Position numbers and translations under genes: made by a program. A stretch of 64,000 bases of DNA from a phage: the sequence record NC_135731.1, one strand, 5' to 3'. Position 1 is the first letter of the stretch. Each line of letters starts with the position of its first letter. Positions 43,826 to 53,557 of this stretch are shown here, in pieces. The notes beneath the pieces were generated by a model. That model was not told where the DNA came from and did no database searches. It saw only the letters and a program-made list of their open reading frames with translations.

Positions 43826-43906
43826 AGGCAGGCCCGGTGATTGTCTCCCCCTGTTCCCAAGTGCCGCCCGTTTAATAAGAATAGCAAAAGGGGCCGAACA
43901 AGTCAA
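43826..43906 (-). promoter_or_regulatory. promoter plus conserved GC-rich hairpin leader (copy A)
   Basis: TTGACT-17 nt-TATTCT (43878-43906) followed by GGGAGACAATCACCGGGCCTGCC core (43826-43852); homologous to copies at 52847 and 52983. Confidence 0.5.
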
Positions 43907-43935
43907 CCCCAAAATCAGTACCAAAACACTTTTAT

Positions 43936-45277: not shown

Positions 45278-45538
45278 ACTATTTTAACGATAATCATCGT
45301 ACGCTTTATTAACCTGGCGGATATAACATTCAAAAGCCAGATCAATAGATTTATATTCACGGCTATACTCACCATAGGAAACCACATACATTTCTATAGC
45401 TTCCTCATATGCGAGGAGAATAGAATCTAAGCCTACGATCTCGGTCTTTGCAATAATAGCCATGATTTTTATCCTCTTTGTGGTTGGTGGGGCTTGTTGC
45501 TCCCTTTGATTTATATATTACAGTTTTATATGGTCATG

Positions 45539-45772
45539 TCAACTATTTTCAAAAAATTTTTCTGCTGTGATATTCTTCCCGGTAGGGTTCGCTACTTTCA
45601 AAATTCTATCATGCACCGGACGCCCGAAAGAATAAGATCCGTATACAGTAAACCAATAATCACCGTCAGGCTGTACTATTACCGCCGCATATGGTACGCC
45701 TTTCTCGTTATTGCTAACAAAATAGATCACATTGCCATTAATAGCCTCGGTGCGTTTAATTTGTTCCATCAT
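45539..45772 (-). CDS. hypothetical protein (77 aa)
   Basis: ORF with AGAGAGG RBS. Confidence 0.45.
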   Translation of the reverse strand: MMEQIKRTEAINGNVIYFVSNNEKGVPYAAVIVQPDGDYWFTVYGSYSFGRPVHDRILKVANPTGKNITAEKFFENS

Positions 45773-46690: not shown

Positions 46691-46999
46691 TTAGTTTGAG
46701 AAAACATCGTTCACAATAGCGATCACAATGCCGCCCACCTTGTCACGGTCAACAATGCACAAATCACCATAGATCATGTGGTAGTCTGGATGATCTTTCA
46801 CAGAATAGTCAATAAGTGTTTTCTTGTCATCCAGCTTCGTAACTTCCATTCTCATAACGATATGAGAATCATCAAAGGCATTATTCCGAAAAGTCATAGC
46901 CTGACCGCCAGGGCACCCAGTGATCTCCACTTCCACACCATCTACGATCTGACCATCAAAGAAATAAAGATTATTAGCCTGGATAAACATGTCTATCAC
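46691..46999 (-). CDS. hypothetical protein (102 aa)
   Basis: GGAGTGA RBS; preceded by repeated hairpin-promoter element. Confidence 0.5.
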   Translation of the reverse strand: MIDMFIQANNLYFFDGQIVDGVEVEITGCPGGQAMTFRNNAFDDSHIVMRMEVTKLDDKKTLIDYSVKDHPDYHMIYGDLCIVDRDKVGGIVIAIVNDVFSN

Positions 47000-47047
47000 T
47001 CCTTGTTAACTGCGTGGTATTTTAACAGGGTTTAAATTTACTTTATT

Positions 47048-47098
47048 GATGGCCCTGGAGTCAAGGCCATCTAAAAATAAATTTTACAGGCCTACAAT
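47048..47098 (-). promoter_or_regulatory. repeated hairpin-promoter element, copy 1
   Basis: Conserved about 50-bp element with palindrome GATGGCC...GGCCATC; on minus strand reads TTGACT-17 nt-GTAAAT. Confidence 0.45.
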
Positions 47099-47274
47099 CT
47101 CTTTGATTCGTTTAACCGCTGCTGGGGGTAAAAATTATGGTAACCAATCACGCGAGTGATACTAATCGCCGTTTGATGATCTTCATAGTCGCCCTTGAAG
47201 ATTTCTTGACCGTCAAGCAGCACGGCAATTTTTTCTTCTTTTTTGAAGTTAATAACGCGGATATTGTTGCTCAT
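47092..47274 (-). CDS. hypothetical protein (60 aa)
   Basis: ORF with GGAG RBS. Confidence 0.4.
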   Translation of the reverse strand: MSNNIRVINFKKEEKIAVLLDGQEIFKGDYEDHQTAISITRVIGYHNFYPQQRLNESKRL

Positions 47275-47520
47275 TTTGTTTCTCCTTTCTGGTTTTTGTG
47301 GTGGTGGGGATTAGCTCCACCGTTGATTGTTATTATCCACATTCCGGACCGGATTGCAACACCCCGGAAGAAAAAATTTTTTTTTAAAAGATAGGCCCCC
47401 ATGATCGGGGGCCGTTATCAGTTACTTACAGCGATAAAATACATCCCTACGCCTAACAATATTTCAAGGGCGATGATCTCAAGCCATACCATAGCACGGC
47501 GCGCCTTATCGGTGCGGGGC

Positions 47521-47706
47521 TTATCCTTGGTTGTCATCGTCTCCCTCTTCCCTCCTGTTAGCAGTTACGTGGTTTGCAATGGCCCCCAGGAGTATTATCA
47601 CCACGCACATTGCAAGAAAAATTATCTCTGTCGTTGTTCGATCCATTGTTATAAAATTCCTCAAGATCAGGCCTGAAAATAAAGCGTTCGTTATTGAATC
47701 CGTCAC
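47521..47706 (-). CDS. small membrane protein (61 aa), tentative
   Basis: Hydrophobic core LAMCVVIILLGAIA; overlaps alternative-frame ORF. Confidence 0.3.
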   Translation of the reverse strand: MTDSITNALFSGLILRNFITMDRTTTEIIFLAMCVVIILLGAIANHVTANRREEGDDDNQG

Positions 47707-47756
47707 GCCAGGCGGCTGGCTTCAAATCTTCACTAAAGGGATTAATTAACGTGGCA

Positions 47757-48161
47757 TTATTTAAACGGTTGGCCCACATATTTTCTATTCCTCTCAAATA
47801 GGCGATCCGCCTCAGTTAAACATATCTCATGGGCTTGATCTCTGGTTTTAGCCTCATCAAAAACCTGTTGTGCCAGGCTGCAGCGTAGGGAGACTGGAAG
47901 ATCACTATAATAGGCGTTGACAAACGTTTGAGCGTCGTACAGGTCTGAAAATACTTTACCCTTTCTATTATTCCCCTTGTCAACAATTGCAAGGATAACC
48001 AATACAGTAGTTGCGACTACCCCCAGGAAAATAGATATAATAAACCATAAAAAGGCGGATCTTCCCATCTTGCCAGCGATCCAGGCGTTAAACAAGGCAA
48101 CCAATACAGCCAAAATAATAAATTCCATTCTATGTACCTCTTTTACAGTTCTGATTAACAA
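47757..48161 (-). CDS. membrane protein (134 aa)
   Basis: Two hydrophobic helices near N-terminus. Confidence 0.5.
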   Translation of the reverse strand: MLIRTVKEVHRMEFIILAVLVALFNAWIAGKMGRSAFLWFIISIFLGVVATTVLVILAIVDKGNNRKGKVFSDLYDAQTFVNAYYSDLPVSLRCSLAQQVFDEAKTRDQAHEICLTEADRLFERNRKYVGQPFK

Positions 48162-48192
48162 TAAGGCGGCAAATATGCCGCCTGTTACCTGA

Positions 48193-48573
48193 TTAAAAAT
48201 TATCGCCGTAAATCTTTCCGCTTTCTACCCATACCACCACGCGAGGCATACTATCCCACACGTCTTGTTTTAGATTGAGCGCGTGCAATTCTTCGGTGGT
48301 GCTCATACCGGGCACGGGCTGATTGTATACTGCAAAACGACCGCCTGCATAATCATAGGCCAGGGTTAAATCACACTGGATCATCTTTTTGATCATGGCA
48401 TTAAGCATGGCGTTAGCCGCATATTGATCACGTTTTAAAGGCAACTCTTTGATTAGTTTGCGATAGTTTTCGATATGGTCGCACACTGTTTCACGTGGAA
48501 GATCTTTCATATCCTCGCGAAAGGTAACCAGGTTAAACATAACGGTGTCAATAGCTTTAGTAGTGTTTTTCAT
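48193..48573 (-). CDS. hypothetical protein (126 aa)
   Basis: ORF with AGAGG RBS. Confidence 0.5.
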   Translation of the reverse strand: MKNTTKAIDTVMFNLVTFREDMKDLPRETVCDHIENYRKLIKELPLKRDQYAANAMLNAMIKKMIQCDLTLAYDYAGGRFAVYNQPVPGMSTTEELHALNLKQDVWDSMPRVVVWVESGKIYGDNF

Positions 48574-48662
48574 AATGTTTACCTCTTTGTTTTGTGTGGG
48601 GGCAAACGTCTTGCCCCTTGAGTTTTAATATAGCAGGTTTTTAGATTATTGCAACACTTTAT

Positions 48663-49286
48663 TTATGAAAAACTCATCTCTCCATATTCATCCACATCAA
48701 ACCGCCAATCATTGGCCTCAATAAGGCCGATCAGGTTTTCGGTAGAGAACTGTTCTAGATAGGCCTCCTCCAGGTCTACGTAAACCTTGCGGGATAGCTC
48801 CCGTACCGTCTCGGTGATCAGCTCTTCCAGATCTTCCACTTTATTTTCTTGTTTGGCGGTCAGGTATAGCCATGTAGTATCGATGTACCCGCTTACAGTG
48901 TTTTCGTGACTATAGCGGCTATATGGATCACGCTCAACGCTTGCGGATAGTTCGCCATCGTGCATTGTGCCGAACAAGTGACGAATTGATCGGAACTTGG
49001 TCAGGGCCTTTACTTTACGCAAGAATTTTTCTAAATCCACGTTTTCCGCACTGATTGACGCGCCGTCACCCTGGCACCAAAAGCCTGACCAATGTACTTC
49101 GGTATCTTCAAGGCCATACTCTGGAAAAACATATTCTTTATAGTATTCAATTACACTTTCTGCAAAAAAGTTATCCCCGCTGTGTTCTTCTCTTTCGCGT
49201 ACCATTTCAATGGCTTTTTCTTTTTGTTCGTCGGTCAGCACGTCGAAAGATAAATTGTAACCTGTGGTAATGTTAACGGTGGTCAT
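48663..49286 (-). CDS. hypothetical acidic protein (207 aa)
   Basis: ORF with AGGAGAA RBS; consensus promoter upstream. Confidence 0.55.
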   Translation of the reverse strand: MTTVNITTGYNLSFDVLTDEQKEKAIEMVREREEHSGDNFFAESVIEYYKEYVFPEYGLEDTEVHWSGFWCQGDGASISAENVDLEKFLRKVKALTKFRSIRHLFGTMHDGELSASVERDPYSRYSHENTVSGYIDTTWLYLTAKQENKVEDLEELITETVRELSRKVYVDLEEAYLEQFSTENLIGLIEANDWRFDVDEYGEMSFS

Positions 49287-49343
49287 GATATTTTCTCCTG
49301 TTTTCTTTGTTAGTGGCGGGAAGTTTTCCCGCCTATGTTTTTA

Positions 49344-49371
49344 ATTATACTTATTGAGATTTACTTGTCAA
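49344..49371 (-). promoter_or_regulatory. sigma70-type promoter (minus strand)
   Basis: TTGACA-16 nt-TATAAT on minus strand. Confidence 0.55.
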
Positions 49372-49373
49372 CA

Positions 49374-49622
49374 CTATTTTTTTAAATTATTGTGGCGCAA
49401 AATGTTTAAAATCTCCTCAACGTCATCAACACGGCGGCAATTTTTAAACGCTACCAATTGCCCCATGATTTTAATCACTGGGCGGCCTTGCCAGTGCCCC
49501 TGAAGAAAGCGCGCCTTGACTTTATCGGTGGAACTATCGCGCCACCAAATAGCCTTGTTGTTGCAGCAGTAAAAATTATTCAGGATAACATCAACTTTAT
49601 CAAAATTTTTTAATTTACGCAT
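49374..49622 (-). CDS. hypothetical protein (82 aa)
   Basis: ORF with GGAG RBS. Confidence 0.45.
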   Translation of the reverse strand: MRKLKNFDKVDVILNNFYCCNNKAIWWRDSSTDKVKARFLQGHWQGRPVIKIMGQLVAFKNCRRVDDVEEILNILRHNNLKK

Positions 49623-49841
49623 GGCGTTTACTCCTTTCTCTCTTTGATGTGGTTAGTATAGCTAACCTGTTGACGATGTCAATGATATTTTTAACGCCAT
49701 AAAACGGCCCTGGGCGATGTTTTCAGGTTAAAGGGGGGCGATTGCATAGGTGGGGGCCTTTTTGGCACTTATAGGGCCAACCAGGGGCGCTATTCGTAGG
49801 ATAGAAATAAAAAGCCCCGCCATTGTGCGGGGCGTTGGTTG

Positions 49842-50039
49842 TTATTTGTCTTTATGGCGGTATCGTTCCGCCTGTCGTTCACGTTCCAAAAGCAGGCCCG
49901 GTAATTTGCGATCATAGTGATTCCTCCAGATCTTCCCGAACCTTTTCGGCTTATTCAGTTTATTGTTACGCTGGCGGCGTTCCGGCAGCTCTTCGGAATC
50001 GTGGGGGCGCTTTACAATTTTTTCGAAATTAATTTTCAT
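49842..50039 (-). CDS. hypothetical highly basic protein (65 aa)
   Basis: Arg/Lys-rich; ATGA-coupled to upstream gene. Confidence 0.4.
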   Translation of the reverse strand: MKINFEKIVKRPHDSEELPERRQRNNKLNKPKRFGKIWRNHYDRKLPGLLLERERQAERYRHKDK

Positions 50040-50383
50040 AAATTTCCCCCTTTACTGATTTCAATATTTGCCTGAATCGCCCGGATACGCCGTTTTATAA
50101 CCTCCTGATCCTTGCAATCATATCCCCAAAAGTCTACGATCTTTGCGCCTCCGGCCTTTAGGCGGTATAGTGTTTCTTGCATCTTGTAAGCTGGGATCGG
50201 TCGCGGTGTTACCTGGTCGCCTCTCTCATCTTTGTACTTGATTATGCAGTCTTCGTTGTCGTTGAATACCCAAAATGGGTATTCTGTGAGCGCGTTGCTA
50301 TCTTTTTCGTTTTTAGATTGGATCTTGTTTACAATTAAAGCCGTAGCAATAGCGCCAATAATAAAACTAGCCCCGCTGATCAT
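50036..50383 (-). CDS. hypothetical protein with N-terminal membrane anchor
   Basis: N-terminal ISGASFIIGAIATALIV. Confidence 0.5.
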   Translation of the reverse strand: MISGASFIIGAIATALIVNKIQSKNEKDSNALTEYPFWVFNDNEDCIIKYKDERGDQVTPRPIPAYKMQETLYRLKAGGAKIVDFWGYDCKDQEVIKRRIRAIQANIEISKGGNL

Positions 50384-50456
50384 GTACTTTCTCCTTTCAT
50401 GGTGTTAATAAATTATCTTTATAGACGGCCCTGCAGCCAGGACCACCGAAAAATAA

Positions 50457-50702
50457 CTATTTCACAATGCCTACAAAACAGATCCCGCCTTCACCTATAT
50501 AAGCAATGTCGGTAATTTTATAATTTGTTAAGATCCGCGTATTCAGCTCGTTAATAAAATCGGTCATCGCGTTGGTGTAGTTGTCTTCCATGTCCAGGGA
50601 ATAATCCCAGGTGTAAACCTTTTTACGTCCGAAGCCTTTTACCATGATCCGGGCGCTTTTGGTGTTGGTGGGCGCATAATATTTTGTGATTAGTGCTGCC
50701 AT
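50457..50702 (-). CDS. hypothetical protein (81 aa)
   Basis: GAGGAG RBS; preceded by repeated element copy 2. Confidence 0.5.
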   Translation of the reverse strand: MAALITKYYAPTNTKSARIMVKGFGRKKVYTWDYSLDMEDNYTNAMTDFINELNTRILTNYKITDIAYIGEGGICFVGIVK

Positions 50703-50743
50703 GGTTTTAACTCCTCATTAGTTCAGTGTTAACAGTGTAAAGT

Positions 50744-50794
50744 TTACTTTATTGATGGCCATGGAGTCAAGGCCATCTGAAAATAAATTTTACT
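50744..50794 (-). promoter_or_regulatory. repeated hairpin-promoter element, copy 2
   Basis: Same conserved element as 47048 and 51365. Confidence 0.45.
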
Positions 50795-51131
50795 CGTTTT
50801 CTTCCAGCTCTGAAAGCTCTTCTTTCACTTCTTCCAGCTCTGTCTGCAATTCCTGGTATTCTTCATCGTCCTCAATATCCAGGCTGTCGATGTAGTCGCT
50901 AAATCCGCAGCGGTAAGCGATAGGATCTAACTCCTTGAGGATACGCGACGGAAGAAAAGAAATGTTTCCGATCATAATTTCGCCGTAGATCTCGTCTAAC
51001 CATTCATCATAGTTTTCGTCGTACTTGTCCTCGTCGATTTCAAAGTTATCGATCTTGTTCTCAAGGTCTGCGATCTGTTTTTTCAGCGCGGCGATCTGCA
51101 TAGCTTTTTCTGCGGCGGTCATAGTAGTCAT
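50790..51131 (-). CDS. hypothetical highly acidic coiled-coil protein (113 aa)
   Basis: Asp/Glu-rich; GGAGAA RBS; promoter at 51183-51210. Confidence 0.5.
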   Translation of the reverse strand: MTTMTAAEKAMQIAALKKQIADLENKIDNFEIDEDKYDENYDEWLDEIYGEIMIGNISFLPSRILKELDPIAYRCGFSDYIDSLDIEDDEEYQELQTELEEVKEELSELEENE

Positions 51132-51182
51132 GGTGTTTTCTCCTTTTGTGTGTTCTGGGAAGTTTTCCCGTTTACGTGTTTA

Positions 51183-51210
51183 AGTATACCGATTTGGGTT
51201 AGCTTGTCAA
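51183..51210 (-). promoter_or_regulatory. sigma70-type promoter (minus strand)
   Basis: TTGACA-16 nt-TATACT on minus strand. Confidence 0.5.
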
Positions 51211-51364
51211 TTAAAAATTTAAGAAAAATTTTGCAAAACTGTTGGCGCTACTCATTAACATTTGCGCCAGGATGTAACCGACAATGCAAACGATAATAGT
51301 TACCTTTGTGTATTGGCGTGCAGTGCTCATCTTAAAGCCCCCTTTTTCGCTTAGTTGAGACTAG

Positions 51365-51410
51365 TTTACTTTATTGATGGCCCTGGAGTCAAGGCCATCT
51401 GAAAATAAAC
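51365..51410 (-). promoter_or_regulatory. repeated hairpin-promoter element, copy 3
   Basis: Same conserved element; precedes a 39-aa membrane peptide ORF. Confidence 0.45.
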
Positions 51411-51815
51411 TTAATAAGTTTTCAGTACTTTCCCGTCCAACCTGTCAAGCTGGATCTCGATAGCTGTAGAAAACCTATTGTACACCACGTCGCCCATAGA
51501 ATCCAACCAGTCTATGACATTATACACTTGCTCTTTGTTCTTGCAGGTCCGGATCCGTTTCATGATGTAAGCCGGATCAATATTGGTACTCTCGTTGGTG
51601 TTCCCCTGTACCTGGTTTGCCGTATTAGTTACATCTTTAATGGCCTTTACCACCACCTGGAATGGCTTTAAGGTGCCTTTTGCGTTCATCTCACGCGCTT
51701 TTGCGGCGCGGTTGTTATATGTTACACAACGGCGGCAAATGTTGATCAAATGCATGTCAATAATTTTTTCATCGTTTGCCAGTTCGTTCATGATGCGGCG
51801 TACGTTCTTATTCAT
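51411..51815 (-). CDS. hypothetical protein (134 aa)
   Basis: ORF with AAGGAAA RBS; promoter at 51864-51891. Confidence 0.5.
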   Translation of the reverse strand: MNKNVRRIMNELANDEKIIDMHLINICRRCVTYNNRAAKAREMNAKGTLKPFQVVVKAIKDVTNTANQVQGNTNESTNIDPAYIMKRIRTCKNKEQVYNVIDWLDSMGDVVYNRFSTAIEIQLDRLDGKVLKTY

Positions 51816-51863: not shown

Positions 51864-51891
51864 AGTTTACTTAAATTTTGCAGCGTGTCAA
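51864..51891 (-). promoter_or_regulatory. sigma70-type promoter (minus strand)
   Basis: TTGACA-16 nt-TAAACT on minus strand. Confidence 0.45.
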
Positions 51892-53040: not shown

Positions 53041-53180
53041 GAATGATTATCATTCAAAATTCTAAATGAGAACTCCTCGCATTTAATAAATTTAATTAGC
53101 ATGCTAATTACCCTCCGTAACAATTTCCTATAAAACAGTATCCCATAAAATATTCCCATATAGAAATTTTAAAAATCCAT

Positions 53181-53557
53181 TTCTGAAAACGAAAAATCGA
53201 TTTCGTCCCCAAAAATTTTAGGTCGAGAGCCGGAACGATTTCCAGAAAATCCGATTCAGAAAACGAAAAACAAATCGAGTACTGAGAAATTTATCGAGAA
53301 AAATTTTCAGAAAATTCAATCTTTGAAACGAAAAACAGATCGAGTACCTGGAAAGCTGCACCGCAACTTCAAGATAGTGGTTAGATTGTTACCATAGAAG
53401 GTCAAGGGTAAGTGGAGGGAGTTATAGTAGAAGGATGTGAGTATGTGCAGGAAATCTGTAATGGTAGTCTGGAATATGGTGCAAACGATAGGATGAGTTG
53501 TTCAGCTCATCGTGTCTACCCTGAAAAATCCATTTTAGTTTTCGATCCGTTTTCTGA
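53181..53557. repeat. iteron array (3 direct and 1 inverted copy) in 1.1 kb non-coding region
   Basis: TTCnGAAAACGAAAAAnnnATCGA at 53181, 53255, 53322 and inverted at 53539. Confidence 0.6.

Follow-up and report, generated by a model that had tools for sequence, protein, structure and literature searches.

The early region of the phage genome in sequence record NC_135731.1 contains a 45-nt intergenic repeat whose sense transcript is predicted to fold into a hairpin and whose DNA, in three of four copies, has the appearance of a promoter. We analysed a 64,000-nt stretch of this record (the window) and consider, on balance, that the repeat is probably a composite intergenic promoter/stem-loop cassette of Vequintavirus, similar to the promoter-early stem-loops (PeSLs) of other phages and working at the levels of RNA, promoter and recombination. 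PeSLs have been described in the T4-type phages RB49/phi1, T4/PST and KVP40/nt-1, where each consists of an A/T-rich tract with the stop codon of the upstream gene, an early promoter of the sigma-70 type, a stem-loop that takes one of five positions with respect to the promoter boxes, and a downstream Shine-Dalgarno (SD) sequence and ATG (Arbiol et al., 2010, PMC2839356; Comeau et al., 2014, PMC4122927). PeSLs cluster among ORFans, and an ORFan that lies between two PeSLs has been found replaced by a single chimeric PeSL in a relative (PMC2839356; PMC4122927). Promoter, terminator and mini-circle activities of PeSLs have been measured in T4-type phages (Arbiol et al., 2010, PMC2839356).

The region of the window from 46800 to 51700 is 100% identical to Escherichia phage phiWec196 (LC739542.1; Vequintavirus, rV5-like), whose whole genome is 138,673 bp, and shares 90-96% identity with some 120 further Vequintavirus records. 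Relative to LC739542.1 the window is reverse-complemented, and it spans the ends of that record. Genes around the repeat lie on the minus strand, which is thus the sense strand.

An earlier note on this DNA had placed the repeat at three sites, starting at 47048, 50744 and 51365, each in the short gap before a minus-strand start codon. The three sites and their location were borne out, although the starts of the full units (Table 1) differ from those given by 11, 1 and 0 bases. A 26-nt core, TTGATGGCCNTGGAGTCAAGGCCATC, has exactly three matches in the window (plus strand, 47046, 50752 and 51374), where none are expected (100 shuffles), and marks three near-identical canonical copies of the repeat, which we call c1, c2 and c3. 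As for further copies in the genome, one diverged copy that the earlier note had missed, c4, is identical to the canonical sequence at 33/45 positions (12 mismatches in 45; 66% identity over 61 nt), and its first base is overlapped by the stop codon of gene D. A 16-mismatch scan and a covariance model, built from 37 variants and run on the window with filters off, revealed no fifth copy either in the window or elsewhere in the 138,673-bp genome. The repeat is a local family of four copies within 4.4 kb and not a genome-wide promoter motif. Every copy begins 0-10 nt past a minus-strand stop codon and ends 34-46 nt ahead of the next minus-strand ATG; the stop codon stands 0-10 nt before the A/T tract TTTATTTT(T/C)A, and a ribosome-binding site (RBS) and ATG follow 34-46 nt past the core.

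Table 1. Copies of the repeat, the gene modules between them and associated signals in the window (aa, amino acids; UTR, untranslated region).
Feature	Position	Strand	Setting or content	-35 hexamer	-10 hexamer	Fold (kcal/mol)	Covariance model (bits)
c1	47037-47081	-	between 60-aa gene X (47092-47274) and 99-aa gene Y (46691-46990)	TTGACT 47064-47059	TAAATT 47040-47035	-25.2 (z -4.39)	80.3
c2	50743-50787	-	between gene C (50790-51131) and gene D (50457-50702)	TTGACT 50770-50765	TAAACT 50746-50741	-21.3 (z -5.44)	72.5
c3	51365-51409	-	between gene A (51411-51815) and 39-aa gene B (51211-51330)	TTGACT 51392-51387	TAAACT 51368-51363	-24.7 (z -6.35)	73.6
c4, diverged hairpin-only copy	50413-50457	-	between gene D and gene E (50036-50383)			sense -21.2 (z -2.96), other strand -10.2 (z -0.43)	58.2 sense, 20 antisense
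Module c3-c2	50788-51364	-	gene B, consensus-like promoter TTGACA-16-TATACT (51210-51183) with 5'-UTR stem-loop, gene C				
Module c2-c4	50458-50742	-	gene D (81 aa); missing in phage 241Ecol014PP				
Consensus-like promoter, predicted	51864-51891	-	TTGACA-16-TAAACT, 10/12; would drive gene A, reading through c3				
Canonical intrinsic terminator	49814-49833	-	7 G-C pairs then TTTTTATTTC; ends C-D-E-F unit; example of a true terminator for this region				

On the sense RNA all four copies fold as a two-tier hairpin (about -21 to -25 kcal/mol, z -3.0 to -6.4), made up, from the base, of an A/U lower stem (8-11 bp), a 2x3-nt internal loop, a 10-bp upper stem and a 4-nt loop. The upper stem, GAUGGCCUUG/CAGGGCCAUC, is G+C-rich and includes one U·G pair. 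Variation in the hairpin was compared across 17 genomes, namely the window and the loci L001, L002, L006-L010 and L012-L020, which together yield 44 canonical copies and 16 copies of c4, or 37 distinct sequences. Of the pair cells in the 37 sequences 97.7% are paired, a share that falls to 39-56% once the partners are shifted by 1-3 columns. Three pairs of the lower stem change on both sides (UA/CG, UA/GU/AU/GC and AU/UA); in the upper stem five pairs vary solely through G·U and one U·G pair is invariant in 37/37. Within the canonical copies (n=44) the variable columns are 1, 9, 23, 24, 25, 27, 35 and 36, which amounts to 5/9 unpaired compared with 3/36 paired columns (Fisher p = 0.004), and one of the changes at the varying paired positions is from G-C to G·U. 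The fold is also specific to one strand, as the sense fold beats the antisense fold in 37/37 variants, with means of -23.0 versus -16.1 kcal/mol for canonical copies and -23.9 versus -9.5 kcal/mol for c4, and covariance model scores of 58-80 bits for sense and 20-42 bits for antisense. Moreover, diversity in the canonical copies is lower by a factor of 3-6 than in the 20 non-coding nt that follow them (nucleotide diversity, pi, 0.021-0.045 versus 0.087-0.171). The sense-strand bias, taken with the G·U and compensatory changes, indicates that selection has acted on the RNA fold in the sense transcript, rather than on a DNA operator.

This bears directly on the proposal in the earlier note of a promoter with a built-in operator, according to which the GATGGCC/GGCCATC palindrome would be bound as DNA by a dimeric repressor encoded by the phage or its host. 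The palindrome is present as described, in c1-c3 the arms of the inverted repeat stand on both sides of the -35 hexamer and do not vary, and terminator palindromes are reported to be able to double as transcription-factor sites (Fletcher et al., 2026, bioRxiv 10.64898/2026.08.19.745784). However, the symmetry is imperfect as DNA and becomes complete only as sense RNA with G·U, and the invariant U·G and the other G·U pairs would be C·A on the other strand. In c4 the half-sites have diverged (GGTGGTC versus GGCCATC) and yet the RNA pairing is kept, while the conserved structure reaches into the A/U lower stem, with compensatory changes there that an operator would not need. Nor was a candidate repressor identified, the neighbouring genes all being of unknown function. 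We therefore regard the operator as quite improbable and, the pairing being specific to the sense RNA, have rejected it as the main explanation; of the two parts of that proposal the promoter signature does appear to fit the pattern of variation, as described below, and the operator is left unsupported.

A further possibility is that the hairpin is a rho-independent terminator and nothing else, which is how the equivalents of c1 and c4 are labelled in the record of phage Murica (the rV5 record leaves them unannotated). A stable hairpin with a G+C-rich top, directly following a stop codon, would suit such a role, and PeSL stem-loops of T4-type phages lowered the expression of a downstream reporter (Arbiol et al., 2010, PMC2839356). 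However, a T tract is missing after the stem on both strands, where the sequence runs on as AATAAAGTAAA (sense) and TCTGAAAATAAA (other strand), and the hairpin is therefore not a canonical intrinsic terminator, a candidate we have rejected for the lack of that tract. Consistent with this, a terminator consensus scan called none of the four copies, yet called genuine T-tract terminators nearby at 49833-49814, 47413-47394 and 46285-46264. The copies also lie inside strings of genes whose downstream members have no other obvious promoter, and we consider termination as their sole function unlikely. A search of Rfam gave no family match, since the best matches over the copies, admitted at a permissive E-value, reached 21-23 bits (E-values 0.8-7), below the gathering scores of 50-80.

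The lack of a U tract, together with a geometry like that of the RNase III sites of phage T7, suggests that processing, 3'-end protection or attenuation is a more likely role for the hairpin than canonical termination, although by analogy only, and this is the least certain step in our interpretation. The T7 sites, like the repeat, are dispersed intergenic hairpins of about 50 nt within polycistronic early transcripts, in which a small loop tops a G+C-rich upper stem of about 10 bp that contains G·U, and an A/U lower stem is joined to it through an asymmetric internal loop. For the T7 early-region sites R0.3, R0.5, R1, R1.1 and R1.3, which are not annotated in the T7 RefSeq record, we take the positions to be those of Dunn and Studier (1983). 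On that assumption the folded T7 early intergenic gaps share the two-tier design, their upper stems measuring 9-13 bp and their lower stems 4-7 bp, with an internal loop and with energies similar to those of the repeat, and several of these gaps also contain minor E. coli or T7 promoters. The repeat differs in having a longer lower stem and a smaller internal loop, and shares no sequence similarity with the T7 sites. In structure it resembles an RNase III site of the T7 type, within an operon context that we infer from the layout of promoters and terminators; cleavage there is a prediction.

At the DNA level, c1-c3 carry TTGACN-18-TAAAYT behind an A/T tract, a 9/12 match in which the -10 hexamer is invariant. 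The reading TTGACT-17 nt-GTAAA(T/C), given for the minus strand in the earlier note, is literally present, but TTGACT-18 nt-TAAACT/TAAATT is the better parse, giving a -10 hexamer with A as its second and T as its sixth base. In Certrevirus, a related genus, the reported early promoters TTGAC(N19)TATAAT have the same 18-nt spacing. The A/T-rich 5' arm of the repeat is also reminiscent of the distal subsite of UP elements, as reported by Estrem et al. (1998-99). Variation among genomes is informative here, as TTGAC is invariant in the 44 canonical copies even though A21 and C22 are loop bases, whereas the sixth -35 position, also in the loop, is free (T31/A10/G2/C1) and the next loop base varies too. 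In c4 the -35 equivalent is CTGGCT in the window and CTGG(C/T)N across genomes, with three of the four loop positions varying, and the hairpin is kept without any -35. A fixed TTGAC, a free sixth base and a variable c4 loop make up the pattern expected of a -35 constraint laid over a hairpin, and the three canonical copies probably also carry a weak, putative promoter of host type. Two further observations count in favour of this promoter: the predictor PhagePromoter called two copies promoters in phage Gotham, and TTGACT occurs within a stem-loop at a second minus-strand site (43910-43878). The description of the repeat as an early-gene regulatory cassette, also made earlier, therefore holds up, in that it is intergenic, lies in an ORFan-rich early region and has a sigma-70-like promoter signature with an upstream A/T tract. 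The genome paper on rV5, with its 33 predicted promoters and 20 terminators, does not mention the element as far as could be seen by searching the text for terms that denote repeats, palindromes or hairpins.

Such a promoter has to be weighed against the view that the repeat is purely an RNA element, an RNase III-type processing site and 3'-end stabiliser in polycistronic early mRNAs, as in T7, whose likeness to a promoter would be an accident of the A/U-rich lower stem and of a loop with TTGAC by chance. The two-tier hairpin with its asymmetric internal loop has the geometry of the T7 folds, all copies are inside apparent operons, between consensus-like promoters and T-tract terminators, and the sense-specific pairing, the retention of the fold by c4, which has no -35, and a promoter match of just 9/12 would all be expected on this view. 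It does not, however, readily account for the invariance of A21 and C22, which complete TTGAC in every canonical copy when their neighbours vary, as does three-quarters of the loop in c4, nor for the calls made by an independent promoter predictor. We consider a pure RNA element to be a serious alternative but a somewhat unlikely one.

Promoter-coupled terminators, in which the DNA of a stem-loop supplies the -35 for the next unit, a T tract lies in the spacer and the -10 follows just downstream (Fletcher et al., 2026, bioRxiv 10.64898/2026.08.19.745784), show some similarity to the repeat, whose stem-loop DNA also holds the -35, with the -10 just downstream. The repeat has no T tract in the spacer, however, and so does not correspond to the definition as a whole. 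A better fit is seen elsewhere in the window, at 43878-43910 on the minus strand, where GGGGTTGACTTGTTCGGCCCCTTTTGCTATTCT combines a T-tract terminator hairpin, with TTGACT in its stem and loop, and an extended -10 (TGcTATTCT) 17 nt further on, and appears to be a textbook example. A second class of early cassette, which we refer to as family D2, is found on the minus strand at 49306-49371, 51145-51210 and 45477-45542, in copies that are 61-74% alike. In every copy a sigma-70 promoter close to consensus (TTGACA-16-TATAAT/TATACT/TAATAT) precedes a G+C-rich stem-loop in the 5' UTR, for example GGGAAAACTTCCC, and then an RBS, and the family resembles the PeSL subclass in which the stem-loop is downstream of the -10.

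Copies of the repeat are also the recombination points that bound gene insertions and deletions between relatives, which had not been noticed earlier. The module made up of gene B, a consensus-like promoter and gene C is absent in ECP26, phiWec189, magaca and the IMG/VR contig 2051223002_000007, and in these gene A is linked to gene D through one hybrid copy. In ECP26, magaca and the IMG/VR contig this copy is flanked on the left as c3 is and on the right as c2 is, and the 622 bp from repeat to repeat are gone; for phiWec189 the junction matches in one piece, just as for ECP26. The three junctions that were read are on three different flank haplotypes. Phage 241Ecol014PP lacks the module between c2 and c4 and has instead a chimera that is c2-type through position 35 and c4-type from position 42, placing the crossover within the shared ATAAAG. 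Comparison of these junctions has thus shown that the copies recombine as direct repeats, deleting the intervening ORFan modules in some phages. Gene conversion is indicated by loop variants common to two copies within one genome, namely ACAC in V18 and in JEP1, and ACUU in APECc02 and in rV5.

Short, nearly palindromic and dispersed beside unrelated genes, the repeat might be taken for a selfish miniature mobile element inserting at intergenic sites, similar to a miniature inverted-repeat transposable element (MITE) or a repetitive extragenic palindrome (REP). However, its copies occupy the same four orthologous sites in the 17 genomes, with no empty or novel sites seen, there are no target-site duplications, and the insertions and deletions are explained by recombination between resident copies. 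Nothing similar to the repeat was found in E. coli genomes, which argues that it is neither host-derived nor REP-like, and IMG/VR, searched with a degenerate stem pattern and with relatives of gene D, gave only two Vequintavirus contigs and no divergent lineage. MITE-like mobility was rejected on the orthology of the sites, and we hold a mobile element of any such kind to be very improbable. Spread of the repeat by gene duplication was likewise ruled out, as a paralogy test of eight ORFs (open reading frames) showed the flanking ORFs to be mutually unrelated.

The flanking genes of all copies belong to PHROGs of unknown function, except for one T7 gp1.1-like protein. This is a 65-aa ORF at 49842-50039 (minus strand) that matches Pfam PF08200 (bacteriophage T7 protein 1.1) with 44.2 bits against a curated cut-off of 21, and is thus a T7-type early gene inside an rV5-like myovirus. 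For gene D (minus strand), a tblastn search of all phages found the nearest relatives outside Vequintavirus at 35-46% identity, in CAjan-like siphoviruses, Pseudomonas KIL-like myoviruses and Klebsiella podoviruses, which suggests that the gene has been exchanged horizontally. The same search gave no intermediate genomes for deeper covariation, these relatives sitting in unrelated phages.

As judged by sequence, the element has both the structural and the evolutionary characters of a PeSL. An A/T-rich tract lies with the stop codon of the upstream gene, and an SD sequence and the start of the next gene lie at the 3' end; a stable stem-loop overlaps the putative promoter boxes, its apex holding the -35 and its 3' arm the -10; the copies are found in a hyperplastic, ORFan-rich region where the flanking ORFans differ between close relatives; and recombination between flanking copies leaves a single chimeric copy. 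The repeat and PeSLs are both intergenic composites with the same order of parts and a stem-loop that overlaps the promoter (a putative one in the repeat), G-T pairs having been noted in PeSLs too, and in both there are cases where an ORFan of the variable early region stands between two copies in one phage and a relative has a single chimeric copy in its place. They differ in that the repeat belongs to Vequintavirinae and PeSLs to T4-like phages, in that the promoter predicted here is weaker (18-nt spacer, TAAAYT), and in that a two-tier A/U and G/C hairpin takes the place of the G(n)-loop-C(n) hairpin of PeSLs.

We propose that a PeSL-like cassette would work as follows. Directly past the stop codon of the upstream ORFan, the sense transcript folds into the two-tier hairpin, which on early transcripts that read through may act as a processing site, a 3'-end protector or an attenuator. 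Three of the four copies would, as DNA, provide a sigma-70-type promoter aimed at the downstream ORFan, with the A/T-rich 5' arm as a UP-like tract, TTGACN at the hairpin apex, an 18-nt spacer and TAAAYT in the 3' arm, and a transcript from it would begin about 30-40 nt ahead of the ATG. Finally, as direct repeats, the copies undergo gene conversion and crossover, which has left one hybrid or chimeric copy in some phages.

There are several points that weigh against this proposal. The constraint that is specific to a promoter comprises just two loop positions, and 9/12 with an 18-nt spacer is a weak match of a common kind, with 31 such matches in 8 kb compared with 17 expected from shuffles. 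The obvious early promoters of the phage outscore it, having 10-12/12 matches and 16-17-nt spacers, and it is these that head the strings of genes (for example at 51891, 51210, 49682 and 49371). Individual copies appear to be dispensable, since c4 has no -35 and c3 of Gotham (L007, 4898-4939) has a 7-nt deletion that destroys both hairpin and spacing: the 3' arm of the upper stem is removed, -35 and -10 are 11 nt apart, and the 39-aa downstream gene is still annotated. The Gotham c3 is a natural knockout of one copy, with the gene layout unchanged. On the RNA side, the covariation comes from few independent events, mainly the old split between c4 and the canonical copies and polymorphism within c4, part of the conservation of c1-c3 could be accounted for by gene conversion, and the role of the hairpin, whether processing, stabilising or attenuating, is read from its shape alone. 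PeSL copies, moreover, number in the dozens, compared with four in one 4.4-kb stretch here, and a literature search found no mapped transcription start site, RNA 3' end or cleavage site for any rV5-like phage.

Two other features of these records were observed. Seventeen MG0656xx records entitled 'UNVERIFIED: Campylobacter phage' (for example L010 and L014) are Vequintavirus, 94-99% identical to E. coli phages in this region, and probably their Campylobacter host label is wrong or the lysates were contaminated. At 53159-53354 the window has three diverged copies (61-75%) of a 57-nt A-rich unit, spaced at 65-74 nt within an ORF-free gap of about 360 nt (53054-53411), from which Tandem Repeats Finder gives fragments only; these units may be part of the 'non-coding' region noted for rV5.

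A stronger version of the PeSL-like cassette, which we put forward tentatively and do not expect to hold in full, is that the same 45-nt sequence does three jobs, as an RNase III-type processing and stabilising hairpin of the upstream mRNA, as a promoter of the downstream ORFan and as a homology patch by which ORFan modules are excised or inserted, possibly by way of packaged mini-circles, so that shuffling of the PeSL type would not be peculiar to T4-like phages. If that were true, such a cassette would offer a general route for the exchange of early genes between unrelated phages, an idea alongside which the siphovirus and podovirus relatives of gene D may be cited. The repeat reveals no new mechanism, as the type of cassette is a known one, now found outside T4-like phages. 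It is, however, a compact natural case in which the constraints of an RNA fold and of a promoter can be read separately from variation, and its confirmation would correct the conflicting labels of 'terminator' (Murica), 'promoter' (Gotham) and nothing at all (rV5). If confirmed, composite promoter/stem-loop recombination cassettes would extend from T4-like phages to a second large group of lytic myoviruses, the rV5-like phages, which are widely used as therapeutic and biocontrol candidates, and would explain part of the variation in gene content of their early ORFan region.

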